A stretch of 61,064 bases of DNA, the filler included, from Sphacelaria rigidula (taxonomy: Eukaryota), in NCBI GenBank assembly GCA_964200075.2. It is 10 parts of 10 records of this genome, joined end to end, with 100 filler letters (N's around TTAATTAATTAA, not from the genome) between each part and the next. Parts side by side here need not be neighbours in the genome. Positions count along the whole stretch, not along the records: positions 12,235 to 18,251 come from CAXNAA020022770.1; 9 more parts are not named here. The stretch is one strand, 5' to 3'. Positions 11,604 through 61,064 of this stretch are shown in pieces. How positions within the stretch are numbered: position 1 is the first letter of the stretch; each line of letters begins with the position of its first letter. Under the pieces are notes generated by a model. The model was not told the DNA's origin. It made no database searches and was given only the letters and a program-made list of their open reading frames with translations. The position numbers and the translations under genes are program-made.

Positions 11604-12234
11604 TGTTGGGCGGATACGACCTCCGGACTGCAGCACAATAATACTCCGGTGGGGTGCGTCACTTATATAAATGCGTGCCGTAGTGCCACACGGGACTAAA
11701 TATATAGAAAATATAAAGTGTGCTGATTTTTGTTGTATGAAATTCAGAGGCCGCGGTGCTGTTTTTTGCTGTGTGCACAAAGTTGAACATACTTGACCCG
11801 TTGCGTCCCCTCATTCGATAAAACTAATCCAACCGCACCGGGGCGACATTTTTGGTGCGAGCACGGCCTATGTCAGTGGATTCTTCTGTGACCTTCCGCC
11901 GTAAAAATGGTTGTAGTCGGTATTTTCTTTTCCCATATTGTCTTCTTCATCAGCGCTCAAAATAATGAGGCGTCTGGACCGGGGACGGGAGGGGAGGTTT
12001 CCCAAAGGGTGAAATGAGCATTGGTTATTGTTCATGACACAGATATTGTAACTCTGACAAGACGGGCGAGAGAATTTTTGCCAAACGGTTAGATTTTTTT
12101 TCTTGTCCCCAGAGGACAGGAAGGAACCTTAAACNNNNNNNNNNNNNNNNNNNNNNNNNNNNNNNNNNNNNNNNNNNNTTAATTAATTAANNNNNNNNNN
12201 NNNNNNNNNNNNNNNNNNNNNNNNNNNNNNNNNN

Positions 12235-12307
12235 TTCAACGACGATCTGACTCGAAATTTCGAGCAACAAATAACCCAAAATACCCGCCCCCTATCGTAG
12301 GATGATT
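12235..12307. mobile_element. End of a second copy of the AGT...ACT (6-bp TSD) element
   Basis: CGAGCAACAAATAACCCAAAATACCCGCCCCCTATCGTAGGATGATT is approximately the reverse complement of the left end of 32591-32746. Confidence 0.7.
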
Positions 12308-12893
12308 CTCTCCGGGTTTCTCATCCCAAATAAAAGACCCATCCCCAATTTGTAAGATCCCGTGTTACTTGATTTGCTGATGGCGACATCCTTGAGCAGG
12401 TCGACACTATGTGCCATATGGTGGTGGTGCAACTTGCCGCCGAGAGCACTTGCTGCTGGTCAAACGTTCTGAAGCGTGTGTGTCGCGAAGGGTAGATAGT
12501 GGTACAAGCAGCACATTAGCTATTTTTTTTTATGTCTTGCTTCTATGACTGAAGGCGACTACACAATTCCTGCACATGACCTGCCTCCAACAGTGTGGAA
12601 AAATAGAGACAACACGACAATCGCCCGTTGAACGGAAAGTCAAACAGTGAAACACCAGAACGCTGCAGACAACATCATTTGAAAAACCTCCGCCATCGCA
12701 CAATTGTCTACACGCATGATACGGCAGCCTCCGCTTGCCCGTGCTACGTTTCCAACGATAGGATCGCACGAGCGGGAATACTCAAACTGACATGTATCGC
12801 ACAGATTTGTACACCACACTCGGCGCAGAGGACAGATGCATCGAAAAATCACCATGCCGAGCATCAGCCGGTAAAAGGGTGTGCATGGACTCT

Positions 12894-15558
12894 CTAACCA
12901 AGTCGTCTCCCTCGCGGGCGGGATAAGGCCGAGGAAACATTACTCGAGGGAGCACACACGTCCAGTTCCAGTTTCATGTCGGCATCCTCCTCTTCAGACA
13001 TAATATCCTCCTCCGCTGCCACATCAAATACCGCGTCATTCTGCATCGTCCTACGTGGTCTTTTCGTGTCCCTACAACTGGCGATACTGTTTCCGCGGCT
13101 CTGCTTTCTGGTGCCCGTGAAGCCGCTTTTGCCCATGCCGTCGCAACTGCTGGATTGCGAAGCCAGTCTACAGCTCGTTCTCATGCCCGCGGAAGCAACC
13201 GCAGGCGCGAGCGTCGGCTCCATCTTCATCTTCATGCGCGTCTTTGCCACACCCAGAAGAACCTCATCTGCTGCCGCTGCGCTGACAGCCCATTGCGAGG
13301 CAGCAAGCCCGGTGGTCTCAGCACGCGCACCTCCTTGCCTGGCACGGATGGCGCGCGAGCTGTGACGAGAATCAGCGGCACGACTACTATCGCTCGTGCT
13401 GGGACCACCACCCGACAGACGACGAAGATTTTCACCACGTTCATCGATACCGCCACCGCCACTTCCCTCGGCCAAGTCATTATCCAGGCACCTTCCTCCT
13501 TCGCCATCAGCCCCTGCTGCATCAGACGCGATAACCAGGTCGTGAGCAGCATGGCGGCGGATATCCCTGTGCTTCTGGGCCCGATTGGAACATCGCTGCG
13601 GAGAACTTTCATTGTCGTTCACGGGGATCATCCCTGCGCGTGTGTGTTTGACGCAAAACTCCGCTTTTCCACCATCAGCTGCACCGAACGATGGTCTTTG
13701 GCAGCAGCCCTGCCTGCCACAGTGCTTGTGGACCACATTGACCATGCCCGCCCGGGCGTGCGTATCGCAAAACGTCGCCTTTCCGTCACCGGCTGCCCCG
13801 AACGATGGGAGTTTTGAGCAGCCCTCTTTGCCGCACTGCTCGCTTCTTACATCGACTATGCCCGCCCGGGCGTGAGTAATACAGAACGTCGCCTTCCCAC
13901 CACCAGTTGTTCCGCGCGATGGTTGTTTGCAGCAGCCCTCCTCGCCACACCGCTTGCTTATTACGTTCACCGTGCCCGCCCGGGCGTGCGTAGCACAGAA
14001 AATCGGCTTCCGGCCACCGACTTTCCCGAACGATGGTTGCTTGGAGCAACCTTCCTTGCCACACCGCTTGCTTGTTACGTTGACCATGCACGCCCGGGCG
14101 TGCGTAGCACAGAACGTCGCCTTCCGGTCACCAGCTGTCCCGAATGATGCTTGTTTGGAACAGCCCTGTTTGCTACACTGCGTGCTTTTCACGTAGACCA
14201 TGCTCGCCGGCGCGTGTGTAGCACAGAACATCGTCGTCCTGCCACCGACCTTCCCGAAGGATGGATGTTTGGAACAGCCCTCTTTGTCACACCGCCTGCT
14301 TTTTACATCGACCATGCCCGCCCGGGCGTGTGTAGCACAAAACATCGCCTTCCCGCTACCGGCCTTTCCGAATAGTGGTCCTTTAGAGCAGCCCTGTTCG
14401 CCACACGGGCTTGCGTTTTACGTTGACCATGTCCGCCCGAGCGTGTGTACCGCAGAATGTCGCCCTTCCACCACCGGCTGCACCGAACGATGGTTGCTTG
14501 GAGCAGCCCTCCTTGCCACACTGCTTGCTTATTACGTTGACCATGCGCGCCCGGGCGTGCGTAGCGCAGAACGTCGCCTTACCGCCACCGGCTGCACCGA
14601 ACGATGGCTGCTTGGAGCAGCCCTCCTTGGCACACTGCTTGCTTGTTACGTTGACCATGCACGCCCGGGCGTGCGTAGCACAGAACGTCGCCTTCCGGTC
14701 ACCGGCTGTCCCGAACGATGCTTGTGTGGAACAGCCCTGTTTGCCACACTGCGTGCTTTTCACGTAGACCATGCCCGCCGGCGCGTGTGTAGCACAGAAT
14801 GTTGCCTTCCCGCCATCGGCTGTGCCGAATGATGGTTGTATGGAACAGCCCTCTTTGTCACACCGCCTGCTTTTCACATCGATCATGCCCGCCCGGGCGT
14901 GTGTAGCGCAGAACATCGCCTTCCCGCTACCGGCCTTTCCGAATAGTCGTCGTTTGGAGCAGCCCTGCTCGCCACACGGCTTGCGTTTTACGTTGACCAT
15001 GCCCGCCCGAGCGTGTGTACCGCAGAACTTCGCCTTGCCGCCACCGGCTTTCCCGAACGCTGGGTTTTTGGAGCAGTCTTTCTTGCCACACCGCTTGCTT
15101 TTCACATCCACCATGCCGGCTCGGGCGTGCGTAGCACAGAACGTCGCCTTTCCGCCATCGGCTGTCCCGAACGATGGTTGCTTGGAGCAGCCCTCTTTGC
15201 CACACTGCTTGCTTTTCACGTTGACCATGCCGACCCGGGCGTGCGTAGCACAGAACATCACCTTCCCGCCAACGGCTGTCCCGAACGACGGGCCTTTGGG
15301 GCAGCCGTCCTCGCCACACCGCCTGCTTACAATATCCACCATGCCCGCACGGGCGTGTGTAGCACAGAACGTCGCCTTCCCGCCATCGGTTGTCCCGTAC
15401 GATGGTTGTGTGCAGCAGCCCCGCTTGCGACACCACTTGCGTTTCACGTTGACCATGCCTGCCTCGGCGTGCGTAGCACAGAATTCTGCATTTTTGCTAT
15501 CAGCTGCGCCATGTGAAGCCCTCTTGGCGCAACCTGCGCGGATACATCCAGTGGTCAT
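12894..15558 (-). CDS. EsV-1-7 repeat protein (17 Cys/His-rich 38-aa repeats plus low-complexity tail), intronless, 1-bp frameshift near 14408
   Basis: Repeats C-x4-C-x3-PSFG-x6-A-x-FC-x2-H-x3-GMV-x-V with a 114-bp period. ORFs 14383-15744 and 12894-14345 join if one G is removed at 14407-14409. Likely ATG at 15558 (MTTGC), downstream of an acceptor-like TTTTATAACAG. Confidence 0.9.
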
Positions 15559-15769
15559 CCCTTTCGCTACTGTTATAAAAAAGGAGCCAAGGTGGCGGGA
15601 GTTCCACCACCAATACTTCAGCCGGCACCGCCACACACCCGCGCAATAGAACCAGCTCACGAATCCGGCAATAGCCTGAACAAACCAACCAGCGAAGGTA
15701 ACCACAGGTTGCGTCCAAGTGAGAGGAGGATAAACCGCCATCATACTATCTTTGTTGCAAATCGGGAAT

Positions 15770-17256
15770 TTGACTAGGATGGACTGGAAAATTTACCTCG
15801 GAATTAGAAGGCGACAGCGGTGCAGCTACCGCGCCATGGTCGCGCACAGGGAGAACGGCGCCTTCTCTACAGGACCCATAGCGTATCTACCATTACTGAA
15901 ACAAAGTAGCACGACTGAACAAGGGGAAGAGGTGTTGAACTCTGAAAATACCTAGGAAGCAGGTGCGCCGAGATCACCCGTATGGTCGCTCGTCCCATGA
16001 GATTTACCCAACACACGACGCGCCAACTGCCGCTCGGCTCTGTGCGCTTGAATTGGGAGTACGTGGAAGCGGGACTACTCCTGAAGTCAGTTATGAGGTA
16101 TGAATATGTCGCTAAGGATAGAAATACCTTGGCGTCATCGCCGGTAGAATTGAGATTGCGCGAGGAACATACACCATGGGCATGCAAGCAATCAGCGCCT
16201 GGCCTATGCGGGGTGAAACTGCAGTAACGCTCAAGCTACGAACATTCTCGAAACTGGGTACTTGCAGTTCTTACGGTATAAAAGTGAAGTGGGCGCGAGA
16301 GGAAAATAGACTCAGAGGGCTGAGGAAAAATATGGCAGGTAGCATGTCAATATTGCAAAGGAGCACACGATTCGGACACTGCGGCGAAGGACATAAGCAA
16401 CTCGGAAATTGGAACGAAGATAGCGGAGACATGGGGAAGCGAAAGACAACTCCTGATGGGACCTTCGCCGCAAGCGAGATGCTTCTGCATCAAGAGCCCC
16501 AATCGGAGAGCCGTGACCGCTGACACAACAAACGCAACAGCTCGCAAGGAATTCTGGATGAAAATGGTTGAGATATGTCCTCCTCTGTACCCGACTCAAG
16601 ATGAGTACCGGAAGCTGGGTCAACACAGAAAAGACACCTGTCTTCTATCGGTTGTTGGCGTTTTCCTTGGCTAGTCGCCTTGCTGTGTTACTTGGTTATG
16701 TGCTTGTACATGGCTCACGGTGTCCTCGGGTTTCATTGCTTCCAACTGTCCCTTCAACTCTTTTTTCCATCTCTATTTCCTCTCAGTGCTGTACGAGAGA
16801 ACTTAGCACCTCGCTCCCACATGGCTCATGGGTGAGAGCCCATGCCCAATATGATGGTCCCAACATGGCTGAGTCACAGCCTGATTCCACGGCCTATTGT
16901 TTTGTTCTGGATATGGGTGCTTGTTTTTTGCCTATCGCCCGTTTACACCTGCAGCCGTGCTGCAGGGGCTGGCCATTTCAAGTTCTACTTCGTATAAAAA
17001 TGTACATGTATTTCTGCTCTCGATCATACCACGTCCCTTTACTCTCGTTTTTCGCTTACGTTCGAATTTCTTTTGTTCCCTTTCGTTTGCTCTGCCGTTC
17101 ACTCCGTTCGATTCTTATAACCTTCGGTTCTCCACTTTTTGCTCTAAAGCGAGCGTTTCTGTTTCGTTCGTCTCGGGTACATACATCATGCGACCACTGC
17201 TGAGTCTCTCGGGGATAAGCTGCTGTGGAAAAATCAATGAATCGATAAATCAATAT
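15770..17256 (+). mobile_element. Degenerate non-LTR retrotransposon (LINE) 3' portion
   Basis: Broken RT-like KYLGVI motif near 16122, a pyrimidine-rich 3' UTR and a tail AATCAATGAATCGATAAATCAAT. Related 3' ends at 19380-19480 and 59770-59860. Confidence 0.4.
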
Positions 17257-17961
17257 ACAGAAGTAACCACAACATTATTTTGTCATCGCTCTGGGATAAA
17301 AGGGACCAGTGTGCTGGAGGGGCTTCGTCGCTTCGAAAAGAAAGGGTAAAGTGCACGAAACGAATGAACGAGAGAGACAGGAATCGACATCATCAACATG
17401 GTGCGTTGAGCTGCTGACAAATTACAGCCGTGGGGAGGAGGAAACAAGCGTCAACAAGCGGCAGGGAAAAAAATCACGTAAAAGAACCAAACCTTGAGAA
17501 ACATTTGTAAAAAGAAGCAAACATCGACGTCATGCTACAAACGGCACAACGCTTATGACGGTATGTATGCAAGCATACGCCATTAGTTGTCGGTGAGTAG
17601 ATCGGCCTTTGCTCCGGAGACTTCTAGGCACGAGGTTCTCTGTACTTTGTACTTCTCAGAGCCCAAAATGGGCGATTTTGGGAGGAGGTGTCCGTCTGTC
17701 TTTGGGCCCATTACCGTCCTCGGCGACGTTTTTTGTTCCCATTTACTAGGCCAAACCCCACCCCCTTTCAAAAGCATCTTTATCGACGCTGCAAAATTAA
17801 AGCGCAATGGGAAACGGAAGTACAGGGGGAAAATGCAGAATACGATTTGGCTGAAGGCTATGCGCAGCCTGCCCACCTCCCTACCCACCCCTCAACCGAT
17901 ACATTACACACACAACCAACCAATGCTTGGGAGCAAGGGGGCTGCTGGTACTCATTCGATT

Positions 17962-18251
17962 GCATGCCATAGCCATGAGAGCATTGACCTCGCATCCCTA
18001 CAAAGCCGGGACTGGCAGGTGGTAGGTTGGTGTACTCATGATCATGCATGCCATAGTCAGAAGACAACTGACCTCGCATCCCTACAAAGCCGGGAATGGC
18101 AGGTGGTAGGTTGGTGTACTCATGATCATGCATGCCATAGTCAGAAGAAAACTGACCTCGCATCCCTACAAAGCCGGGACTGGCAGGTGGTAGGTTGGTG
18201 TACTCATGATCATGCATGCCATAGTCAGAAGACAACTGACCTCGCATCCCT
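17962..18251. repeat. 84-bp tandem repeat (at least 3.4 copies, runs into contig end)
   Basis: CTCGCATCCCT recurs at 17989, 18073, 18157 and 18241; copies are near-identical. Confidence 0.95.
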
Positions 18252-37262: not shown

Positions 37263-39910
37263 CAAAACTTTTTTTTCGGTCTGTAGCCTCTGCCAGACGA
37301 TCTGGACAGAAGGACTTTCAACGAGGGACTCCTCCAGTATCACTGGCCTCGTGCTCGACAAGTCCTTTCTTCTCACCTGATATTACCACGGAGTGATCCA
37401 GAAACAGACCACATCATGAGCCAGACAGCAAGGGGCCACACAGATAAGGGTCATCAATCCAAGATCCCCTGTCCCCTGCCACTGCTCCAACCATGCATGC
37501 AATTATACTCAAACCTACGTCTTGGTATCATTTGGCTACATGTCGAGAAAAAGGGGCGCTTGATTGGTTTATTGGTTGTCGCATATTAATTGACCCCTCA
37601 GGGGTCCAGCCGTGGTCTCATGCGGTGGAATCGATTTGAGCGAAATTCGCTCATTCTTCTCGAATTGGGTCCAGGCGAATTGTCAAGCTTTCGACCGAAA
37701 AAAGACAGTGACATTCGTGAAATGGTACATACATGTGTCATGAAGATGCATAATAGCCTGTTGTCATGCCACTTCAGACCCGCTGTCGAAGTCTGGCTTT
37801 CGGTAATATTGGGAATCCCAGTAGACAAGATTGCAGGTCTCTTCACAGTTGGTCGGGTTCGGATGTGAGCTTGTATATTGGTAAAAGATGGCGAGATTGA
37901 TCGGCTGGGACCGATATAGCTCGCCCATCCTCCACCACTATCAACTGCTCCTCTATTGCCCTCCAGCAAAAGAGGTCTAACTATCGGTGAGACGCATTGG
38001 GTCGAATTGGAATGATTGAGTGGGTACTGAAGTTAGAATCAAGATAATCAAGAGAGAGATGAAGAACCTATTCGCGTGAACCTCGTCTGATATTGCGTTG
38101 AGCTGTGTTCAGCAGTGTGCAGAGCTGTGCCAGCCTGACTATTGCCCGCTGGCCTTGTGAGCCTGTACCTTGGACTACAACCTGTGTCCTTGCATTATAC
38201 TACCGCTTGCTCTTTATTACATTGGTGTTTGACTAAGGAGCTTCTTCTTTGGCTATTGCGTTTCTTTCTTGTACCGCTTTGTATCCCTGGCTGCCAGCTG
38301 TGTACTCCAGCTTTTGATCATTTGCCCCTTTTTCCCTTCAGGATAGTTCTAGTCAAATCTACCGCCCAGGTACTCAGTAGCTCTCGAGCTTCTGCCCCGC
38401 GTGTCTCTCGGTAAAGTGTATTCGTGCCCTGCTACTTGCAGTTGCTGTAGCGCTCGACGGCATAATATATTGTGTGGCCAACGTGGGGTCAACGCGCACT
38501 GCTTGCTAATCTTGCCGTGCGGTCAATTTGACACCACCTGCACAAGGCCCAACGGTATCAGTTGCGTCTGCACGTCTTCGAATTTTTTCGTGATTCACCA
38601 GCCCGGCATGACCACCACACCAAGCCATCGTTGGCTCGTGTATTTGGCCTTGTGGCCCCCTTCCCTTCTGCAGAATAAGTCTTCTACTACAGGTTTGTAC
38701 AGAACACCAGTGCACAAAGGCGCACTGTTGTTCATAGCCAGCCGCTGTCCTTGACCTGAGCTCCTGCCAAGCCGGCACGCTGCTGCTCTCATCTTTCAGT
38801 ATCGATTGTACGCGACTGTTGTATCTTTCCTTCACGAAATTACTGAACAAGTACAGACCGTGTTCACACAGTGTGATAACGGACGTCTGTACACGAACTT
38901 TAGATTGTTCCGGAACTTTACCTTCGTTGCTCGTAGCGACCTTGTTGTTGTTGTAGCTTTAGTTTCGTTGCTTGTGGCTACTTTGTTCTTGTTGTCCTCT
39001 TGTGTACTTCGCACAGCCGTAAGGCCACGTGGTACATCACCGTGGTAAGTAAAAATACACAGCATAACGTACTGTAAGATTTTCTCATTTGACCCCTTCT
39101 CGAACGAACAAATTTATTGTTCCGAGACGGTTTCGTTGAAATACTACTAGTTGAAACATTTCAACCTCCGTTACGTGCTCATTTGAACAGACAGCACTCG
39201 AAATCGGTGCCCCTTGCCTGTGCACTACATATGTTTCGTCACCCGCTCCCAGCGTTGCCCCTGTTGTGCATCACATCACCTTTGTTCCGCATACATACGT
39301 TGTCTCAACTTCGTTGGATAACAAGCCTTCGCTCTGCACTACGCAGCCCGAGTTCGCGGTCTACGACCCAAGCTCTGTAGAAGCTTTTGTGCTGCCTTAC
39401 GCTGCACAGTTTTCGTGCGTATCTGAGAATATATATATATATATATATATATCTTTAGTTCTTTTCATTTGCGCACCGCCAGTCGTTCCTCAACTTGTGC
39501 TGGAATCATACACTTACAGTCTGCCCGTGACGCTACATCCGGAACACGTGCAAGTTGTTCTACCACGTACCAACGCTGCTACAATCAGGTCTCCGCTTGC
39601 CCTCAACGGTATACGTCTGTTCTGTGCACAACCCCGTGCTAGCTATTACCGCCACAACTTGAATAAAGTTGTATTAATCAGACCTCGGGCATAGTTGTTA
39701 CAAACCACAATTCGCTTGAATAAAATACTCAAGTAAATGAGGTCCCACGGTCCCCTCAGGCGCTATTAGGCTTCATTATTCAGTATTTTCCGGATTAAGC
39801 GTCGGCTTCTGCACGTAGCATCACTCGGTGCCACGCTCCTTTGATTAGAGCCCGCAGATCAGACATACTGCACCTTCCCTTTTTGAGCACAAAGGCTGCG
39901 TACGATTATC

Positions 39911-42716
39911 ATGTCGCACAGAAATAACGCTGGCTCTTCCCCTCAAATAGGAAACCAACCATTTCGCCGGACCCGGAGTCAAACTACTGGCGGTTCGAAA
40001 TCTTTCAAGATGAGCGGCACGCCACCTTCAACACATCGCCGCACGTATGCGAGTGCTGTCCGTTCTTCGGGATCTGAAGACCAACATTCGAGCGAAGCTC
40101 ATTCTTCAACGCTTGAAGATCAGACTTTGACGCTGAGACCTGTTCTCTCACGTTCCGACCCGGACTCGGAGAACATGGTAGTGCAACCGGCCGAGTCATT
40201 GGTTCCTGACGAACATGTCAGTGAGCCCACAACGGTGGATTCCGTCGCACACCCCTCGCTGGCCCCTGCTCCCCCGAATCCCAATGTGGAATCCGGAGTT
40301 AGGATTGTGCCCTCAGTCGAGTCGTTGCCCTTGGACACACGTGTCCAGCTCGGCCCTGTCACGGTTGCTTCAACCGTGGCAGTCCGTCGCTTGACGGCTG
40401 ACAACTCTCGAGACGATTCTGTCCCGACGAAGCGCATCGCTTCTGGAGCAAGAGACTTTGTCACACGGGCTGCTTCCGTTACGGACCCCCTTCGCACGAC
40501 TCTTGATAGTCCCATGCCCCCTACTGCGCAGTCCAATGTCGGACCTGCAGTTGCGGCCATGCATGCTGCCATGCAAACTCTGCATCGCACTTCCTCGGCG
40601 TCATCGCCATCGCCAGCACCAGCTCTCATCGAGGAATTCACGGCTTTTTGCCACGCCACGCTCCGAGACCAGTCGGCGTCTGCTCATGTGCAATTCGATG
40701 ATGACTCTGCACCCGCCACGACCAAACCCGTACGTCTGGCGACCCGTTCCGCGACATCGCGTCCTCCGTTCGTCACTCATGATAAATTCAACGAACATGA
40801 GGCCAGCCCTTCCTCAACGTCGCAGCAGAGCCATACTCGCGCTTCTGACCGGCGCCGCACACCGAGACTTGGTCATGACCATGTCTCCCGTTCAAGCACT
40901 TCTAAAGGCCACTCCCAGCAAAGCTTGAGTTCATCGCGCGCTTCCATACGCCCGAAGAATATCGCTGATGGACACAAATATGAAGGTAGCTCACGCCATA
41001 GTTCCAATTCATCCCGCGCTCCTAAGCGCCCGGTGAACACTAACCATGGCCGTACTCACGAGGATGGCTTGCGGCCCAGATCAAGTTCTTCGCGCGTTAA
41101 CTCGCGCTTGAACAACTCCGAGCATGCACCTTCGCGCATCTCTACTGCTCAGCCTTTGTCACACAACCGTTATGTACGCAATGATAACACTGTGCATGCT
41201 GTGACGATATCCAAAACATATTTTCGGACATGTCACCGGCTCCGGAATCCTCACTTGCAGGATCCGACCGCACCTCATCGCACAATCGACGACAACGCAC
41301 TGACCGCGAACCACTTTCCCGTTCCGACGCTGCGCTTATTCGTTCTCTGCGACAACGTTTGACAGATGTCGAACAGCAACTAGCGACAGTAACTATGGAC
41401 GCCCAACGCACTACCACTACTGCCACCAAGACCATTCGCGCTCCCGCAGCTACTGCTGCCGCTACCGCGACTGCTGCGCCTGCGGCCTCCCCTGCGCCGG
41501 CTCATACAACCGCCGCCGCTCCGCCTGCTATCGACACGGATGCCGATAGCGGCTCCACCACAGCCTCTGTGCGCCCCCCCCCATCCGTGGAGGTTCTCCC
41601 TCCGCTTGGCGATGAGCACTGCCCCACCGGCCTGCTCTTACGCCTGTTTACCAACCGGCCACGCGCTGAACAGCAACAACTCATCGCTGACTATGAGTCG
41701 CAGGAGCTTGTGCTGACGCAAAACATCCTCGGCAAACAACGCGACGCCGACACCGCCGCGTCTCGCCCCCTTCTGGAGGAGCACGAGAGTACCCTCAAGG
41801 ACCTCCAGCGCCAGGCCTCCCTTGCTCAATCCACGAGCACGGCGGCTCAACGAGCGCTCGACGAAGGCCGTACTGCTGCTACGTCGGCTCAAAGACGGGT
41901 TCGTCAACTTGAAGATCATGTTCAGCGGGCCGCCCAAGCAGCGGCTTCGTCGGCGGCCCGCCTAACTGATCACCAGGCCGCTCCGCCTTCCACCGACAAC
42001 TTGTTCAGGCCCCACCTGCCGGCGTCCAACAGAGCGACGTATGTCATTCCTCGCAAGTCCAACAGGACGTCGCCTGCTGCGGCCGCTGCCGCCGCCGCCA
42101 CGACGCCTCCGACACCGCCGCGTCACGGAGTTGGCTCGGTGCCGCACACAGCTTCTCCGTCGAACTTGCGACTGGTGTCTCACGAACGAGAATGGCTTTC
42201 TCGTCCTGTGTCAACCTATACCGGTCCCTTCGACCGGCGAAACCATCTGCACTGCTCCCCAACCGCATGGACCTTGATATCCCAACGTATTTTTTACACG
42301 GTTGGGGTGTATGTCGAACAGAACGGCTTCCTCCCCAAGGCATGCGTGTCGGTGCTCACCTTGGGCCAACTAGTTTTGCAGACTACCATTGACGATCACG
42401 AGGACCACCACACTTACGTTCGAGCGGTCGAGGAACTTTTTGCCGCGCTTCGCGCCGCTGACAACACTCATCCCGGCGCTACCCTCAACGGAGACAAAGA
42501 TGAAGATGGGTGGACTCCCGCAACATCCAACTGCCGGGGACAGAAGAAAAACCACCGGCGCGACGACGATGATACCGATGGAGGGAATTCACGCCGCCGC
42601 CATGGCGGTGGAGGATCTTCTTCAAGCAGTTCCGGACCGAACCGCCCGCCCCGCAAGCCGAAAGGCAAGCACACTGGAGGCAACTCTTCCGGCTCATCCG
42701 CATCGGCCTGGAACCG
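39911..42716 (+). pseudogene. Long intronless Ser/Arg/Ala/Pro-rich, coiled-coil ORF (likely retroelement gag/ORF1), frameshifted near 41200, cut by contig end
   Basis: Overlapping 483-aa and ~495-aa ORFs in different frames; coiled-coil LKDLQRQASL...VRQLEDHVQR; no recognisable domain. Confidence 0.45.
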
Positions 42717-45649
42717 NNNNNNNNNNNNNNNNNNNNNNNNNNNNNNNNNNNNNNNNNNNNTTAATTAATTAANNNNNNNNNNNNNNNNNNNNNNNNNNNN
42801 NNNNNNNNNNNNNNNNGTGCGCGCGTCTCACGCGAATCATCATATCTCACGGAATTCTGAACCGATTTGAGCAAGGTCACGCACAGTGTGCTCAGCTGAT
42901 GAGCAGCAATGACTGGAGCGGTGTGTTTCGGTTTGGGAGGGCAATGCGGTCTTCAGGTTCACATTTGATTGTCTTGGCTTATCTGTCAAGACTTCGGTTA
43001 TGCCCCTGTCAACGGGATGTTTTATGTTCTCGTTCGAGGTTCCACAAAATCACTTTTTAAAAAGTGATTTCTTGGCACTTTTCGGGGGGGGGGGGGGGGG
43101 GGGGTTCCGCAACAACCAATCACCGGGTTTTTTTCACAAAAGTGTTTTTCTTAAAAAGAATAANNNNNNNNNNTGTTGTGTAGGGTGTGGTTGGGGTGTG
43201 GGGGGGGGGGGGGGGGGGGGGGGGTGGTATCGCAGCAACCAATCATCGGTCGTTTTTCACAAAAGTGATTTCCTGAAAAGTGATAATCACTTCTGATAAG
43301 ACCCCGCCTGATTGGTCAAAATGGTCATCCCACGCCACTCGGGTCTCGTGCACGAGTCATAACTTTCCGCGAGAAACTTCCACACACATGGTTGACTCCG
43401 TGAGCTTCTCCGATGCTCCGCGGAGAGACCCCCCCCCTCAAAACCACCCCCCCCGAGCCCTGGAAACCCCCGGATGTCTCGGGATTGTCCGCCTGTACAT
43501 CTGTTCCGAGGCGACGCTTGTCGTCTAAGGGTAAAGCGCGCTTTCGGGGCTAAAGCCTATTGGTCGGTGACTCTTTTTTTTGGCCTATTTTGGGGGGTGC
43601 AGCCATAACCGTTTGAAAAAGGAAAGTCAAGTTCCTCCGCATATCGCGCCGGTGTCTGACTTCGGCGCATATTGCAACGTCCTCAAGTTTTGACCCTTTG
43701 ACCCACAACCGCAAGAGCTTGGGATGTCTACGTCTGGTGGTGTCTATACTTTATAAGAAATGCAGTGCACTGTGCTTCTGTGGTCGAGAAATGAAAAGGC
43801 CTCTCGCACGTCAGAAATACCATGCCATGTCGAGTGTCGAGGGGCATACAACGTACGAGTACCCTTTCCGAACACCACGGTGGGTGCATATGCTTGTGGG
43901 AAATGGAGCCGACACGCCGTACTCCGCAAGAAGTATCACGATACATCAGAGCCTATGGGGCAAACACGCTAGTCGGAAGTCGATGGTTTCGCAATTCTAG
44001 AGGGGCATGTTGTCGACAGACGGCTGAACTCGGTAAACTACTGTCTGTGCTTCACTGTGTGGATCACACTGACCTCCTTGGCTTGATGCACCCGTTTTGC
44101 GGAGAATGTCACGCAGTAATTTTGAAGTATCACGCCCTTTCCTGTGCTTCGCGAGACTAACTCCCCTTGTCTTGGTCCTGCCACACTTCGATTAGTCCAT
44201 GCACACCGAAATATTCTGCGGCCAGCTTTCTATGGATGGAAAGGGGCAATGTCGTGAAGACTGTTCGGCTGTGGTTCCGTGCCCATGGGGTATCCTCTGC
44301 ATCGAAGGAAATTGAACGCACTGAATTAAATTTACCGTGGGAAAGTGTTATTTTCGGGCACACAAGCTGTGCGGTTTTCAGCCAGTGTTACGCCGGGAGT
44401 TAGTATCACGTTTCCCAACACCACCGCGCAGATATCGGAACGGTTTTTTAATGTAAAGACAACCCCAAAAATGGAGACGCGATGGAGTCAAAGAAGTGTA
44501 CACATAATTATATTGCAAAAAAAGTAATATGAAGCTGTAGTATGTATCTGAATCTACATTCTTATCGCAGTCTGGCTCAATTCCACGCGGTACAGCTCAC
44601 AAACCAGCGATTGATACCCCGAACGTCAACGAGAAAGCGTTTTTTAGTACATTTTGGCGGTTTGCAAAGGGATGTGGGCTCCGCGCCACGCGTTGTTGAG
44701 GTGAACAGCCGTTTCAGTGTAGTCTACAGTACTGATCAGCTACGGTGCAAAGGTATCCGTCTTCACGGGTTGTGACAGTTACATGCGGTGGGATTTGATA
44801 CCATAGTAGGCGTACGTCTTGTACCTACTACGTACGCAGTTTTTACTTGTCACGGTGTTGAGGTAGCCACACCCAGTCACTTCTTTCTCTCCCTTCTCTT
44901 CCCTTCCTTGTCTTGCTTCGTCAAGCTATGTAATACTACTCTTCTACAACAACGTGATTGGCTCAGCCGTGTCCTTTGATCAACTTCATCAGTCGTGTCT
45001 AGCTGTCCCTGTTTACGGATCACGTATCAAGGAACACGCGTTACGGAAGCCGCCCGGCACTGAAAATTTATGGTGTGTGGGAAGCGCGCGCATCAAACCG
45101 CACTCCAATACTTTGCTTCGTTGCCGAGATACCTGCGTTGAAAAATCATCACTTGCGGCTTCAGGAACAGCAGCGTTTATCGAGGTGAAAGATGGGAATC
45201 CTCAAAAAAAGCTCGGTGTTTGGAAACTAAAAAAAAAGCGAACTTACGCGCAGCATGGACGAAGTACAAGGAAAAAACGTTCAAGACTTATCCTGTGCCT
45301 TCTTGACAGTCGCGCGCAAGGCCAAGGCGGCGCCTCAACGCGCGGAAAAGGCTGAAAAAGAACTCAAGGCGACCACCGAAAGGCTCAACGCGGTCACCGA
45401 AAATCTTGATGCGTCTGTTCCATGTCAGAGTGTTAAATGCAGCGCGTAAGCTACGCCGGTGCGCCCAATTTTTATTGCGGTCCTTCGGCCCTTTCACAGT
45501 CGGGAGACACGATGATGTTTTCCGTAACTGACTGTGAATACTAATAATAACAATATGTGAACAATGCAACATGGGGCAAGCTTCGTTTTGAAGGGAATGT
45601 GTATGTATCTTCCCTCCTGCCATGTGGTGCTTATTTCTTGTAAGCGCTT

Positions 45650-46292: not shown

Positions 46293-48832
46293 TGTGGCGA
46301 AAATCACGCCGTCATGGTTGAGTATATGGTGGATCCTGGATGATGACCAGGGACAAGGACAAGGGCATTCTGTGTATGACGATCCTTGCTGTGTAGCCCA
46401 GGCCTGATGGTAGGGGCCTGCAGGTTTTTACTCCGAATAATGATAACGTGTTGTAAAGGCTGACAACTGAGACCTCGAGGCCAGTGGAGCTGGGGAGTCC
46501 CTCAACAACATTTAGACGCTGCAGTACTAGCAACCTGCTAGTGTCACAATATCGATATTAGTGCTAGTGCTAGGCGTGCAAGTGGATGCTATCGTTTCAG
46601 GTTGCCGAAAATTTTCAGCAGGGAGACGTCTGGACAGCTTGTAATTAGCTTCGGGCAAAGAGCTTCACGGACGCGTGAGGAGGCTTCAAGCCGACGTAGC
46701 TGCAAAGGCGGCTGGCCCGTGATTGATCCAGACTGGAGACTTGCTGGAGCTGCGTACAGCGGGTGTTTATTCGACCCCAGGGCTGTGTTGGAGCGGCGCA
46801 GAAAGCAGGTGTGATCTGAAGTTCGAGAATGTTTTACAAATCTTCAATTTTTCGTTCGAGAATGTCGACTAGTGAGGTATGTAGAGACCAAGCCACCATT
46901 GTTACCTAAGGCCAGGGACATTGTAGGTGGAGTTGCGGGTATGATTGCCGGACTCTGTGATGATGACCTCCATGGCGAGTAGGCTTGATTTTGCCACTCT
47001 GGTGGAGAGAGGCTATGTGGTCCTGTTCTCCTGTACTATGCTGAGGGTTAATACATAAATAACTAAAGCTGCTGAAGTCCATGTGCCCGTGATGGGAGGA
47101 GTCCAAATGGCAATCTGATCTTGAGTGACAGAGGTCTATAATGAACGTTCATTACGTCCGCTGAGGCGGTAGTTTCGCTGAAAAGCAGCTGACATTTCAA
47201 GATAGGGAAGTCTGCAGGCCTGATCAGTTTGCAGCAAACGAGACCAGCTTAGGGCGTATTAACGTCGCGAAGAGTTGGAGAAGTAGAGCCGAGGAGGTTA
47301 TGAGGCAGTGCTAGGGCGGGCTGTGGTATCGCTCGTGCGTGAGGTGCGGGCGGTCGATCGACAACTGGCGAGCCCAAGATCGTTCCAGAAAAGCGGCAAA
47401 ATTACTGCCTAGTGGAGTCAGCGAGAGTTGCTTGTTCCACGCTTGGCCAGGTACGGCCAGGAAGAGGAGTCTAAGGACTTCAAGCACGTGGTGAGACCTG
47501 CGTGAGGAACAGGCGCTGTGGCCATTGTCTTTGTAAGGTGGTACAGCGCGTCTCGGTATAAAAGGAAAGAGTTGTTGTTCCTGTGAGTGGGAGGCAACTT
47601 CGTTTTTCAAAAAGGCGTGTGGAGTGCTGTACTGCTGACCGAAATGTACGAGGTGCAGAAGTATATCGCGGTGGACGGCCATGTTGTTCGTGCGCCGCAA
47701 CAATATGTTGTCGTCGATGGTCGCGCTGTCCGTGTACGATTTCTGGATATGCCCTACTACGGTCGCAAGTGCTTCAGTGAAAAATGTGCTCAGTTTCTGC
47801 GGAAGTATGAGGACTACCTTCGTGAGGTGCACGTAACGAACGAGCATTCAGCACCCTGGCACGTTGTTGAGGAGCCAGCGGTCTCTGACCTCATGCCCGC
47901 ACATATCGAGTACTGTCTATCTGACACATTTTTGGATGGTGCGAATGATGTTGGGCAAGAGCAACTCCTCTTTGCGCTGCGCAAGCATGCGTCTTATGCA
48001 TCGCCGAGTGTGGTGCAAGATAGTGTGAAGGTCGCCGGCGGTAGAGACAGGCACGACGGTGCACCCGCCGAACGTGCAGTAGGTGCTGCGCGTTTGAAAC
48101 AACGATACAGGGCAGCTGCTTGCCCTGTGACAGCCGAGAAACATGTGTCTGCCCGAGGGGTCAGGCACGACAGTGCACCCGCCGAACGTGCAGTAGGTGC
48201 TGCGCGTTTGAAACCACAATACAGGGCAGATGCTTACACTGTGAAAGCCGAGAAGCATGTGTCTGCCCGAGGGGATAGATGCGATAGTGCAACCGCTGAA
48301 CGTGCAGTCGGTAGGGCGCGTCTTCACCCACGATACAGGGCAGCTGTTTCCACTGTGCAGAGCGGGAAGGAGACACAGCACGTGTCTATCGAAGCGGGGA
48401 GGCATGAGTACGCGCCCGCCGAAAGTATCACGGTAATAATTGGTTTGGATGCTGCTGGTATTTCTGCTGGAGAGGGCGAATATGTCACGCCGCTCGAGCA
48501 GACTGCAGGCCGCTCAGCTGCCGCTGTTGCAGTTCAGGAGTGCGCTGAGCAGGAGGTGGCGGCTGTAGCGAGTATGGGTGATACTGCTGCTGCTGTTGGC
48601 GATAGTGAGAGGGCGGGGCCTACATGGGCCAATGAACAAGTACTGGTGAGCGGAGGTCCCGGTTGCTTGTTGCCGCCGGACCAGCGCGAAGCTGGAAATA
48701 TTCCTTGCATGCTCCACACGTGGCCACTGGGGGGAGGCTCCAGGACCTTGCAGGCACCTTGCGCAACCTGGCCCGGCAAGGTAGGTTATCCACCTTTGGC
48801 AAGGTGGAGGTTGCGCAAGGTACGTTGCACAA
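46293..48832 (+). mobile_element. 5' part of a Gypsy element related to 32181-35691 (LTR 46293-46548, leader, gag-like ORF)
   Basis: LTR TGTGGCG...GTGTCACA shares TGTTGTAAAGGCTGAC and CTGGGGAGTCCCTCAACA, and has the same downstream ATATCGATA.TAGTGCTAGTGCTAGG. ORF from 47587 contains gag-like FLRKYEDYLREV...VSDLMP. Confidence 0.8.
48040..48423 (+). repeat. 114-bp (38-aa) coding tandem repeat x~3 in the gag-like ORF
   Basis: GCCGAACGTGCAG-like motif at 48067, 48181 and 48295; RHDxAPAERAVGAARLKxxYRA...AEKHVSARG units. Confidence 0.85.
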
Positions 48833-49119
48833 NNNNNNNNNNNNNNNNNNNNNNNNNNNNNNNNNNNNNNNNNNNNTTAATTAATTAANNNNNNNNNNNN
48901 NNNNNNNNNNNNNNNNNNNNNNNNNNNNNNNNGTGTTTCGGGTCTTCCGTGCCAGACAGATATGCCACTTCAACCCCATATTTTGTATGAACCCCAAAAA
49001 TATATAATCGGCTGTTAAAACGTGCCGCAGTGCAGCAAGGGACTCAGTATATTTAAAATAGACAGGTGGTGCCGATTTTCGTTTGTATAGACTTCAGGGA
49101 CGCAAGTGCTGGTTTGAGG

Positions 49120-49155: not shown

Positions 49156-51150
49156 GAGGTCAACTGTTATGAACTTCAGCCCCAAAGCAACAGTGCCTCC
49201 CCTGGCCTAAAGTCGTGACAAATGGTTTTCGTATGGACGATCTCATGCCCCCCGACTTCCCTGAAACTATTTTTTGGAGTTTCCCGCGTCTTCCGTTCCC
49301 CAAGGGGTATCGCCCTCCCCCCCCCAGAAGGGTGTGTGCGAAAGAGCCATCCGGGGTGAAAAAGCGTCCCTTTCTCCACCACGAAATCGAATCAAAAGGG
49401 TGTTGTTGCACACACATACCTCACGAAGGAACAGAAGGGGGGAATCTCTCAAAAATAGTATCAGGGAGGTTGTGTTTTGGATTAGATAAAGGGTCCTAAC
49501 AATTCTAACCTCAGAAAATATATGTGTACCCCTACCGTAGCATCACACCACAGTAAGTTCGGACCGAAACATATCAGATGCTTGATCGGGCCGACAAACA
49601 TGAGGTCGCTTGTGCGGTACAGTAGCCATATAATACTCCGCAAAATCTGAACGAACATGTGACCATTTCCCCCTGAATATCTGGCAATAGCCGAGCCTTC
49701 GCTCGAGAATTGCTGTATTGCAACGGGATCAGAACAGCTTTGCCACGCCACCTCTTTCGCTGAGGTTGGTGTTGTCTTCACATTAAACACTACCGGTATC
49801 TACGCGGTACTCATTTCTCCATGCCGGGCATCTGATGCGGACGCCTTTCGTGGTCACACAGTAAGTACCCAAAATAAGGTACACGGAAATTAAATAAAAA
49901 TAAAGCAGGTCCTCTGGAGAAAATAAAAATAGACGCGATATGAATCAGAAAAACTACTGCTAACCCTATAAGATCCAGAGCCGCAGGCGACCGTTCCGAC
50001 TACTGGAGGCACTCGACACGCGAAGCCGAACAGGGAAGGAGTCAAACCCAGAGACCATTTATCAGTACCCATAGCAGCAGGAATCGTATATTTTCAACCT
50101 TATACCTCTAATAGGTCGAATTGTATTACCCGCCAGGGGTTACATCGGTTATATCCTTTCCCCGACAATATCTACACACGCCTGGGGGTATCACAAACGA
50201 AGGTACACATGTTGCTGGTATACTCTATTCCAAGACGACGGCACGGTAGCCCACATTCTCATTACGCTGGAATATTCCATCTCATGTTTTCACCGGCCAT
50301 GTGCGCAGATTTTAGAGGGACAGCCATGTGAACAATTATACGGGACATGGCAAAAAAATCGCCACATAACAATATACCACATCGAGAGAAGGGTATAATG
50401 GAAAAAAAAGAAAAGTAGCGAGAAGAAAAAAGACATGAGGGGGGGGGGGGTCATATATTGCTCACCATTGACCAAGCATCCCTTTCGAGACCGAGCACTG
50501 TTCCCACTCGCAATGAAGACACCTCCAACATTTGGGCGCTCATTACATTTCTTCCATATACTACATGAAACATTTTACATATCTTATCCATAATCGGCGC
50601 GACCCGTGCCCGCCCCCGTACGGGGCGGATCCCCCCCGGATCTCACACAACGGGGGGGGAAACGTGCTCGGGCGCGCCAGCGCTCCCTGGTTGCCGGATG
50701 CGGCTTACTTCGCGCAAGCAGCACTACTCACCCTCCCACAGGTGTGCTTCCTGCGAAGGAACTGGCTGTCTCGTGGTGACCCCTGCAACGTGGATGTTGG
50801 GAAGGCGGTACACACCTCGCATATGACTGCACATTGCTTTCCAAAACCCCGTGATCCGCAGTCTACCAAAATCACTTAACCGAGTGTGTTTTTGTTCAGA
50901 GATGTTTTGTTTGATACTTATCAGAAGGACAAAATAAGTTCGCCGTGAACAACAAATCAAGTAGCTCACTAGGCAACCTGGCACACTCTCAAGCACAAAC
51001 TCGTGCGTTTGGTTCTCATCATTGCCACTTCTTGACCGTTTTTTTTTCTGCCAGTACCATGCCCATGCTGTATGGAGTATATTGTATGCGTGCTATAAAG
51101 GCTGCACAGCATATTAACAGCGATGAATTCTACACGGAGTGACGGAACTC

Positions 51151-51390
51151 TGTGAAGCGCCCTGTGTGGCGCAAAATAATACCCTACAGTGAAATCCCCG
51201 CGAGAAACCCTGCACAGTTTCCCTGAACCCTGTGAAGCGTCCTGTGGGGCGCAAAAAACAAACTACAGCTATATCCCCGCGAGAAACACTGCACAGTTTC
51301 CCTGAACCCTGTGAAGCGTCCTGTGGGGCGCAAAAAAAACTACAGCCAGATCCCCGCAAGAAACACTGCACAGTTTCCCTGAACCCTGTA
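51151..51390. repeat. ~79-bp tandem repeat x3
   Basis: TGTGAAGCG starts at 51151, 51231 and 51310; each unit ends TGCACAGTTTCCCTGAACCC. Confidence 0.9.
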
Positions 51391-55984: not shown

Positions 55985-56400
55985 TCAATCTCTATCCAAC
56001 GCATACCCCATGTACCATATGACCTCTCCGAGATTATTCGTGGGGAACTTGTCGTTCAAAATTTTGCCCACATTTCGCACATTTTCCTCAGTGCCACTGA
56101 TCAGAATGTCATCCACATGGACGACTAAAATCACAAGCACGTCTCCCGCATCTTCCGTCTTTAAAACACAAGGGTCAGCATCACACTGCACCATCCCGAC
56201 ATCCTTCAATAAAGTTTGGCACAGAGGTCGTGACCACTGCCTGCCTGCTTGCTTGATCCCGAAAATAGATTTTTCGAGCTTAACGGTTACGTCTGTCAAA
56301 CCGTAGCAACCATCAGGCAACCTTACGTGCACGTCAGTATCCATCTTCGCTTGAACAAGAGCCTGTGTTACGTCGAAATGGTACAGTGGCCACTGTGTCG
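55985..56400 (-). mobile_element. Ty1/Copia reverse transcriptase fragment
   Basis: WPLYHFDVTQALVQ...KLEKSIFGIKQAGRQW...DPCV...VVHVDDILISG...NLGEVIWYMG (RVT_2-type motifs). Confidence 0.92.
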
Positions 56401-56419
56401 CAATGGCCGAGGGGGCAAA

Positions 56420-56655
56420 GGAGAGACTGTTCGTGAAGGCAGTGTAGATGTTTCTGCGACTTCAGACTCTTGTCGAGGTGTGAGGAGGACCACGGTATTG
56501 TTTTGTACGACGACAACGAGGGAGCGAAGGCTCTGGCCAAAACTCCCCCGAGTTCCGAAAGGAGTAAGCACACCGACGTGAGATATCGCTTCATTCGAGA
56601 GCTGGTGGGGACGGGAAATATCAGGGTCGTGCATGTAGATTCAGGATGGTAGCAT
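56420..56655 (+). mobile_element. Ty1/Copia RNase H C-terminal fragment
   Basis: LYDDNEGAKALAKTP..SERSKHTDVRYRFIRELV..GNIRVVHV. Confidence 0.88.
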
Positions 56656-59543: not shown

Positions 59544-60723
59544 TCACGACTGGGTATGAATGTGATTCTGCGCAAGACCTTTTCCGCCGAAGTAATGTGA
59601 CAAAGGCCGGCTCTTTTCTTCTTCTTTATTTTATATCCTTCTCTCTCTTCTTTTATTTAGTTTTCTCCTTGTCTTTTACCCATCTATTCTCTCCTCCTGT
59701 CCTGGTCTACTCTGTTGTTGTGTTCTATATTTTTTGTTCCTTTTTTCTTCAGCGAGTGTTTCGGTTTTGTTTTGTGTTGGGTACGCCCATCATGTGGTCA
59801 CGGCTGGATCCCTGGGGGGTCAGATAAAATGCGATAATCACTTAATATATAACTCAATCAGGTTATTGATTTATACCCTTCCCAACACACCCTTGGAACC
59901 TTAGTGGCCATGGTGTTCCCCGATGGGGTTAGAGGTAGTCGTATGGTTTATCATTAAGCCATTCATCTCCTGCAGTGAATATTCTCTCCCGAACTATTGT
60001 GGGACATGAGCGCTGTCTCCCAGCTCGGGGGGCAGAGCTCAGGATCGCGGTTTCACAGATGCATCACGGCCTACTCGAGCCATTTAGCACTCAAGTGTGC
60101 ATTGGCGCCGCGAGGCCAAGCTCAGGGGACAGACGCACTATGGGGCGAGGGGGTAGGTCTACCTCAGTTCGTCTACCCAAATCCATAGCTGACATATTTG
60201 TGAAACAACGCCAACCCTAACCCTAGCTCTCACCCTAACCCGAACCAAGGCATACGGATAACCCTCGGGCAAGGGGGGGGGGAGGATGCCCTAGACAAGG
60301 TGTGCGTTAGCAGACCTCAAATCGGGGCCGCAGGTGCCGATTTGGACAAAAACGCGTTCTGTGCATGTGCACGCTAGGAGCACTCGAGACCGTCAGCCCC
60401 ACCAAAGATTCGAATCCCGGTGTTGATACTCAAATCAGCTTCGTTCCAACCATAAATTTTGGGATGAAGAACTGGAGGGGCAAATTCAACTGGGTGCATC
60501 AGGGCATGGGTGTTATGCCACTTCCACTACTGCCACCCTACGTCTGTTGGCGCTACTTCAAAATCAACAAGCACACGCTACAAAAGAACAGGGCGAAAAA
60601 CACACACACAAAAGGGAAGAAGGGAGTAAATGAAGAAAAAAGTCGAACAAGGACACACCACGACTACGAATGATCAGCCACATCGCATGAACAAGCCGGG
60701 CATATGATATACAAAAGACGAAC

Positions 60724-60938
60724 CTTGTGAGCAGCCTCGAACGCAGCACCGCCCTTGATCAACACCCCATTCTTTGCTCCCACCCCGGTCCCCACCATCA
60801 CGGCAGTGGGAGTCGCCAACCCCAGAGCGCATGGACACGCCACGACTGTGACAGCGACGGCCGTCAGTAGAGCGTAGAGCAAGGCATCTGCAGCGAGGCT
60901 GTCAGGCTCTGGTGCAACCAGATCTTCGCCCAGCCACC
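60724..60938 (-). CDS. P1B-type heavy-metal (Cu+) transporting ATPase, internal exon
   Basis: [33 protein letters not shown]: the CPC transmembrane motif of ATP7/CopA/HMA5-type pumps. Donor AAG|gttcgt; 5' boundary tentative. Confidence 0.9.
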
Positions 60939-61064
60939 CTGGTCTTGGATTTCGAGAAAGCACCGTATACCTTCGTCGAATGGTTTGGTGTGAGCGCGCG
61001 CGGGGGGGGGCGTACTCATTTGTTGCTTGCCTTAGTCATTTGACCATTGACCACGCATCCCTTT

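Follow-up and report, generated by a model that had tools for sequence, protein, structure and literature searches.

A 17-unit EsV-1-7 repeat array in Sphacelaria rigidula with a frameshift in the sequenced strain and signs of recombination within the array

EsV-1-7 repeats are common to brown algae and phaeoviruses, and the literature places EsV-1-7 among the most strongly expanded gene families of brown algae, with IMMEDIATE UPRIGHT (IMM) as one of its members. According to Denoeud et al., a brown-algal genome may hold up to 335 EsV-1-7 members, which often form clusters of tandem genes, and IMM consists of a unique N-terminal domain and five repeats. IMM is described as a developmental regulator and the only EsV-1-7 member with a genetic phenotype. 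A 2026 preprint (10.64898/2026.04.27.720984) reports no Ectocarpus EsV-1-7 gene with another Pfam domain and describes the family as expressed specifically and as lying at the periphery of the co-expression network. Within the part that we sampled of the literature matching 'EsV-1-7' in full text, nothing was found on intragenic higher-order repeats or frameshift alleles. Here we describe an EsV-1-7 locus in a 61,064-nucleotide stretch of DNA from Sphacelaria rigidula (assembly GCA_964200075.2), which joins 10 parts of 10 records with 100 filler letters between parts and is called the window throughout; the locus lies in the part taken from CAXNAA020022770.1 (positions 12,235 to 18,251). Our overall reading, which we hold to be probable, is that of a nuclear EsV-1-7 gene of 17 units and a C-terminal tail that grew by internal recombination, is frameshifted in the sequenced strain and encodes a nucleic-acid binder.

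Our locus has the same repeat as the family's founding viral member, EsV-1-7 of Ectocarpus siliculosus virus 1 (EsV-1; Q8QNQ2; PF19114 / IPR043822), and a predicted fold of three units from the locus aligned with that protein over 114 columns at 46% identity. The viral protein has 378 aa; our locus, by contrast, appears to be a nuclear gene of the host whose 17 units are followed by a conserved tail at the C-terminus, and no viral gene was found among the open reading frames scanned in the window. IMM of Ectocarpus belongs to the same brown-algal family in the sources cited above; compared by architecture only, it has its N-terminal domain and five repeats where our locus has four residues, 17 repeats and a C-terminal tail, with an upstream exon possible. 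Giant-virus EsV-1-7 arrays joined to a Vsr/DUF559 endonuclease also have the same repeat, in arrays comparable in length (for example the relative numbered P0063 below, and several structural matches named 'Endonuclease'), but the tail of our locus matched no nuclease and carried no C-terminal Vsr/DUF559 domain. Tandem C2H2 zinc-finger arrays and TALE repeats are analogues and not relatives, being built of small modules whose number is changed by unequal crossover. They differ from EsV-1-7 in fold and in the spacing of the metal ligands, and no hypervariable code positions were found in our array.

We located the tandem array on the minus strand, as are all features of the gene given below, at 13608-15546, where 17 units of 114 bp (38 aa) follow one another. 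Cut at the first Cys, units 1-10 occupy 15546-14407 and units 11-17 occupy 14405-13608. Tandem Repeats Finder reported a single array at 13684-15483 with a period of 114, 15.8 copies, 78% matches and 0% indels. Codon anchors for F-C-x2-H numbered 17 on this strand and were spaced by 114 bp in 15 of the 16 intervals; the remaining interval, between anchors 10 and 11, was 115 bp. The upstream frame had 10 stretches matching Pfam PF19114 (EsV_1_7_cys), with 428.6 bits, and the 503-aa downstream frame had 7, with 284.4 bits; the cut-off is 25. The C-x4-C-x16-C-x2-H framework (C1, C6, C23, H26) was invariant in all 17 units, as were G13 and F22. When a hidden Markov model (HMM) of the 17 units was run against the six-frame translation of the 61-kb window, no further EsV-1-7 unit was found. 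Read through a break between units 10 and 11, the coding region extends over 12894-15558 and holds 887 codons and a stop: an ATG at 15556-15558, four residues, the 17 units, a 237-aa tail and the stop at 12894-12896, with no intron inside the frames as read from the sequence.

The assignment to the EsV-1-7 family is supported by the Pfam match, the C/C/C/H framework and the structural match described below. We take the locus to be, probably, a nuclear gene with one coding exon, brown-algal to judge by its closest relatives, whose repeat protein would consist of 17 x 38 aa followed by the 237-aa tail, and each unit probably holds one zinc ion via C1, C6, C23 and H26. Among 43 long relatives (673-2000 aa, E <= 1e-10, from 7999 candidates scored), the longest array had 16 repeats (P0027) versus the 17 units found here. 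Our locus is therefore at the top of the observed range but not of a different order; it is a long new member of a known family and ordinary in kind. An earlier note on this DNA had described 17 repeats, and 17 were indeed present, all of them recognized by Pfam; they lie on the minus strand, however, and make up one protein only if the break is read through, because an extra base, missed in that note, shifts the frame. Its claim of an invariant C/C/C/H framework held in every unit, all the tripeptides that it listed (KQP, KHP, IQP, TQA, KGP, KNP, KLP and QRP) were present, and its placing of EsV-1-7 as expanded in brown algae, common to phaeoviruses and including IMM agrees with the parts of the literature cited above.

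The break is caused by an extra C in the CCC run at 14407-14409. This run has one base more than the junction of units 5 and 6 and than the allele found in one of the public runs described below: the sequence is AAGCCGTGT where unit 5 meets unit 6, and AAGCCCGTGT, with the CCC at 14407-14409, where unit 10 meets unit 11. In the shifted frame a premature TAA follows at 14383-14385, and the predicted product of the frameshifted allele has 391 aa, made up of 10 repeats and the 7 foreign residues VWRTGLL. Past the break the other frame is open for 503 codons to 12894, with seven repeats and the tail. We compared Logan contigs, not raw reads, of four public runs (X1, X2, X5 and X9) with the window over 12700-15900. 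Run X1, from the same organism, had zero differences from the window across this region. Its contig over 14347-14498 contained the extra base with 0 differences and 0 gaps at a word depth of 36.1, and no X1 contig without the base was found (depth 0 vs 36.1). Run X9, labelled 'algae metagenome', had one contig over 14347-14505 at a depth of 20 that omits one base at 14407; this run has 21 listed differences from the window over 3.2 kb and retains the intact 887-aa frame. Since the extra base is present in X1 and absent in X9, the frameshift is an allele, and a paralogue as the source of the X9 contig is excluded because it would show in X1 too. The break is real at the read level in the reference strain, on the evidence of contigs. 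Since the frame is complete in a close sample that is without the base, the break appears to be a recent truncation or loss-of-function allele that is apparently segregating, and not an old pseudogene. In the sequenced strain the extra C would truncate the protein after 10 repeats and remove the tail, while another sample, from this species or one very near to it, is without the base and would keep the full frame. We also considered programmed frameshifting and rejected it, since the X9 allele is simply without the base; no slippery site was recognised.

The array also contains a higher-order repeat. Identity between units five apart was 85% (5/10), 93% (6/11), 87% (7/12), 96% (8/13) and 84% (9/14) at the DNA level, as compared to a mean of ~77% for other pairs. 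By identity at a shift of 570 bp we delimited a block A at 14635-15033, from the second half of unit 5 (5b) through unit 8, and a block B five units downstream at 14064-14463, from the second half of unit 10 (10b) through unit 13. Measured in 57-bp steps over block A, this identity was 93, 93, 93, 82, 91, 93 and 98%; it was 77% in the first half of the 5/10 pair and dropped to 82-86% in unit 9. The best match of each of units 5, 6, 7 and 8 was the unit five downstream, and when the unit order was shuffled, this diagonal of four in a row was reached in 0 of 5000 permutations. Synonymous divergence (dS) was 0.16 between units 6-8 and units 11-13 and 0.51 between other unit pairs. Unit 9 (14521-14634) was no more like unit 14 (84%) than like unit 4 (85%), unit 8 or unit 10 (87%). 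The first half of unit 9 resembles unit 10 (52/57) and its second half unit 8 (54/57), a pattern which a one-unit unequal crossover between neighbours would leave. Unit 12 (14178-14291) is a mosaic, with flanks like unit 7 (35/38 and 37/38) and a centre most like unit 14 (32/38). In a set of 102 units, the nearest unit lay in the same array for 14 of the 17.

The offset-5 block, the hybrid unit 9 and the mosaic unit 12, as read from the sequence, point to unequal crossover or gene conversion. Unequal crossover and short tracts of gene conversion, both inside the gene, would have lengthened and reshuffled the array. A five-unit step would have copied units 5b-10a to 10b-15a, and conversion patches may later have overwritten part of its edges and spots within it. 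The duplication is not a doubled or collapsed assembly of one copy, because the block copies differ by 4-13% and each has contigs to itself, exact matches in X1, X2 and X5 and near matches in X9. Joints that skip 570 or 571 bp, as a 12-unit allele would have, were absent from the contigs of the four runs. Five listed contig joints, skipping 449, 826, 1148, 65 and 362 bp, were considered as deletions and were read instead as paralogue contigs; their short sides were 20-25 letters long, and in most of them foreign or unknown letters stood between the two sides. Diversification by unequal crossover had already been proposed for this array, and the block, the hybrid and the mosaic bear it out, gene conversion being indicated alike. 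Of the junction strings that had been said to recur five units later, RKPCGEQ and SRRCDKE do so, while STQCGKQ returns as STQCSKQ and MVNVI as TVNVI. The proposed 570-bp block of five repeats is borne out in its periodicity but not in its full length.

Divergence between units indicated purifying selection, with a mean ratio of nonsynonymous to synonymous divergence (dN/dS) of ~0.4 and a pooled ratio of the respective proportions (pN/pS) of 0.48 over units 2-16. The highest ratios of column pN to global pS were 1.25 at column 9, 1.12 at column 35, 1.05 at column 14 and 1.00 at column 38. Entropy reached at least 1 bit in 19 of the 38 columns. Column entropies in the array correlated (Spearman 0.63, p = 2e-5) with those calculated for 221 units taken from 51 other proteins. 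Such a pattern looks like that of a fixed scaffold whose surface positions tolerate change in general, and unlike that of otherwise identical units with a small number of coded positions.

The array is followed by the C-terminal tail (12897-13607), a low-complexity stretch of 237 aa with 0 in-frame stops, compared with 4 and 18 in the other frames. It contains a basic TKRPRR motif at 13050-13067 and an acidic VFDVAAEEDIMSEEEDADMKLELDV motif, ending in KLELDV, at 12957-13031, and both are conserved in relatives. The tail is probably disordered, and its basic motif, which resembles a nuclear-localisation signal, would be followed by an acidic end. With the tail as query, a HMMER search of 1.84 billion representative proteins returned 23 relatives at E <= 1e-3, 17 of which reached E <= 1e-10, with a best value of 1.6e-43; none was longer than 504 aa. 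All eight named relatives were 'unnamed protein product [Sphacelaria rigidula]'. Of 16 tail or related proteins scanned with Pfam, 12 had between one and seven EsV-1-7 stretches and four were tail-only fragments with none. The best named relative (P0001) was 48% identical over 432 aligned columns spanning repeats and tail. The locus thus falls in a tail-bearing EsV-1-7 subfamily with a conserved C-terminal tail of ~240 aa after the repeats. The S. rigidula proteins of this group (for example P0001 and CAM9931920.1, numbered P0006) share with it the order of repeats and then tail, the TKR(L/P)RR and VKLELDV motifs, and tail identities of 37-46%; they differ in having fewer Pfam repeats (2-7), none with 17 units.

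Ten of the tail relatives (P0001, P0003, P0006, P0008-P0011, P0013, P0020 and P0024, including eight named S. rigidula models) start at a Met inside a unit (MV.V…, MVDVK...). This suggests that the S. rigidula models are systematically 5'-truncated, perhaps at similar frame breaks or at gaps. Since these relatives start inside a repeat, truncation is probable and their repeat counts are lower bounds; the published counts for the tail-bearing subfamily may be too low. A Pfam scan of the tail gave no nuclease or other domain, the only family in the 503-aa downstream frame being PF19114. An Atlas search with the tail gave no usable match, and a metagenome scan with it gave 358 pattern matches, of which 0 were confirmed.

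We modelled units 6-8 with AlphaFold2 (AF2) from a 30-row alignment. The model was locally confident, with a mean predicted local distance difference test score (pLDDT) of 85.3 and a predicted template modelling score (pTM) of 0.47, and each modelled unit contained a short two-stranded sheet of positions 12-14 and 31-33. Searched against BFVD, the model had 27 matches at E <= 0.001, the first being EsV-1-7 of EsV-1 (E 4.7e-12, TMq 0.78, 46% identity). The predicted model thus shares its fold with the founding viral protein. Four of the 27 matches were named 'Endonuclease' and one 'DNA primase'. Against the PDB, Foldseek returned 0 matches at E <= 0.001, with the zinc-binding domain of nsp13 as the best row (E 1.4), followed by RING, LIM and B-box domains. 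With VIA-align in its wide setting, 2 chains out of 48161 reached Z >= 2, a RING domain (Z 2.9) ranking first, and a sequence profile gave 0 at E <= 1. The weak PDB rows are all small zinc domains; they neither prove a relationship nor show the fold to be new, and 'zinc-finger-like' describes what the C/C/C/H framework would imply. The Pfam scan, per-position dN/dS and structure prediction that the earlier note had proposed as checks accordingly gave, in turn, 10 and 7 stretches of PF19114, no column greatly in excess of neutrality, and a match of units 6-8 to EsV-1-7 of EsV-1 with no solved structure.

The array is strongly basic, with an isoelectric point (pI) of 9.7 and 108 K+R against 37 D+E. 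Six of the 43 long relatives were scanned with Pfam, and among them P0063 carried four EsV-1-7 units, seven DUF4379 units, which are treble-clef zinc fingers, and, at 20.9 bits against a cut-off of 20.6, a DUF559/Vsr-like domain, while P0039 carried seven EsV-1-7 units and a helicase-associated (HA) domain. From the basic array, the relatives joined to nuclease or HA domains, the BFVD names, the basic motif of the tail and the role of the five-repeat member IMM in development, we infer that the protein is most likely a strongly basic, multivalent, zinc-dependent nucleic-acid binder that acts in the nucleus, which it would enter by means of the basic tail motif.

Several observations weigh against our preferred reading. 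X1 probably represents the strain from which the assembly was made, and perhaps the assembly's own data, so that it does not support the extra base independently; no contig of X2 or X5 is listed over 14407. The coding region has 19 allelic differences, 11 nonsynonymous and 8 synonymous, which indicates weak constraint, and in unit 8 of X9 two of the three differences equal the unit 13 state, possibly through mapping of a paralogue. Only ~400 of the 570 bp are clearly above background at an offset of five units, and dS at this offset is uneven, from 0.08 (8/13) to 0.34 (9/14). Unit number and order come from the assembly only, since none of the contigs reaches across the whole array. For units 14-17 with the tail (24 sequences) the model was poor, with a pLDDT of 41.4, and unusable. 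Two alternatives bear on the frameshift. If the extra base were an error made in a short homopolymer during sequencing or assembly, the gene would be intact in the sequenced individual; the base does sit in a CCC run, the 503-codon frame downstream is fully open and X9 is without the base. We nevertheless consider such an error unlikely, since the read-built X1 contig has the base at its depth of 36.1 with 0 differences and X1 has no contig that is without it. The locus could also be a dying copy in a large family of fast turnover, with the frameshift as its first visible lesion and neither allele functional. The size of the family, which according to the literature cited above can reach hundreds of members in a genome, often clustered in tandem, and the 11:8 allelic ratio agree with this idea, but the intact allele in X9, the dN/dS of ~0.4 between units, and a tail that is 37-46% identical to S. 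rigidula proteins and free of in-frame stops (vs 4 and 18) make it improbable in our view.

The rival that we grade as serious concerns the higher-order repeat. The likeness at an offset of five may be due to non-allelic gene conversion of a ~400-bp tract within a pre-existing array of 17 units, from 5b-8 to 10b-13 or the reverse. Conversion without a change of unit number fits the ~400-bp extent and the spread of dS equally well. The elevated tract is of that length and not of 570 bp, and both the 9/14 pair (84%) and the first half of the 5/10 pair (77%) are within background. Other short patches are present in the centre of unit 12, like unit 14, and in the two halves of unit 9, like units 10 and 8, and the X9 changes towards the unit 13 state in unit 8 are of the same kind. 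On the other hand, the ends of the presumed block have rare residues in common: unit 5 and unit 10 both finish with KRKP, and VNVISK occurs in unit 9 as well as unit 14. The overall best match of unit 5 is unit 10, and a duplication later eroded by patches accounts for the core and the faded edges alike. We give conversion alone a substantial but minority chance and keep to the five-unit duplication followed by patches of conversion. A different proposal, raised as a possibility in the earlier note, was that the repeats carry a specificity code. The array would then be a programmable reader, like a TALE or zinc-finger array, in which a few variable residues per unit set the target. The modular architecture, the strong positive charge, the joining of such arrays to nucleases in some giant-virus relatives, and pN/pS of ~1.0-1.25 at columns 9, 14, 35 and 38 are in its favour. 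Variation of at least 1 bit is spread over 19 of the 38 columns, though, no column is greatly above neutrality (maximum 1.25), and column variability follows the family-wide pattern (rho 0.63); a few fixed hypervariable sites under diversifying selection, as in a coded array, were not what we found, and we regard this reader as quite improbable. The chance is similarly slim that EsV-1-7 units are modular nucleic-acid readers, one per short target stretch, with columns 2, 4, 9, 14, 35 and 38 setting specificity. If this were true, the locus would be a natural allelic pair in wild populations, with 17 units and a tail against 10 units without one, the internal block duplication would be a means to lengthen or retune the target, and the EsV-1-7 repeat would have its first testable molecular role in a host genome.

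The window looks like intron-rich eukaryotic DNA. Outside the gene, 117 open reading frames (ORFs) reach 110 aa or more. We ran Pfam on 97 of them and scanned three more separately; the remaining 17 overlapped either N runs or these three. Above the cut-off were a DUF4336 exon (6889-7368, minus strand, E 1.9e-19), a copia-type RVT_2 fragment (55988-56461, minus strand, E 1.7e-18) and an E1-E2 ATPase exon (60667-61035, minus strand, E 8.9e-8), and VPS13_N was found below threshold. These three isolated, exon-sized matches fit intron-rich nuclear DNA with a retroelement remnant. No giant-virus core gene was found in the window among the 97 of 117 ORFs scanned, and a viral insertion was rejected on the ground that none of the scanned ORFs was a giant-virus gene.

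Upstream of the start codon we noted a weak candidate 3' splice acceptor at 15676-15678, minus strand, with a pyrimidine-rich tract and cag/G (…ttgttcag/g). A contig of X5, which may be an RNA run, departs from the genome at 15677 with 86 unmatched letters, and X5 is without cover over 15696-15900. The first 30 of these loose letters were not found in the window with up to 3 mismatches. In X1 and in X2 one contig each departs at 15702 with 255 loose letters, and this loose end was likewise not found in the window. The loose letters at 15677-15702 could belong to a 5' exon located elsewhere, to a paralogue sharing the 5' end or to a structural variant. No N run touches the gene, the nearest being at 12135-12234. 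Elsewhere in the window there are nine pairs of 44-N runs at a regular spacing of ~6.1 kb, which have the look of masking, and four 10-N runs (2266, 18811, 32650 and 43164) that resemble assembly gaps.

A second tandem repeat with a 114-bp (38-aa) period was present at 48046-48357 (2.7 copies, 85% matches) in a 433-aa ORF at 47587-48885 on the plus strand. Its units (…DSAPAERAVGAARLK.QYRA…AEKHVSARG) have no Cys/His framework and the ORF has no Pfam match; the repeat is unrelated to EsV-1-7, and its equal period looks coincidental. At 39887-42765 on the plus strand, the most GC-rich part of the window (0.588), two long, overlapping ORFs (491 and 526 aa) of low complexity, with a high content of S, A, T, R and P, had no Pfam match and could be a gene of an unassigned family or part of a mobile element. 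Tandem repeats that look non-coding were found at 17961-18251 (84 bp x 3.5, 95%) and 51145-51389 (79 bp x 3.1, 90%).

The locus is one of the longest arrays found and leaves the overall picture of the EsV-1-7 family unchanged. Its five-unit step, hybrid unit and conversion patches make it a readable record of how such an array grows. Repeat counts and gene models in the EsV-1-7 family can be misled by single-base breaks of the kind found here. The most useful feature of the locus is the apparently segregating frameshift together with its intact counterpart, a pair that could serve in a genotype-phenotype test.

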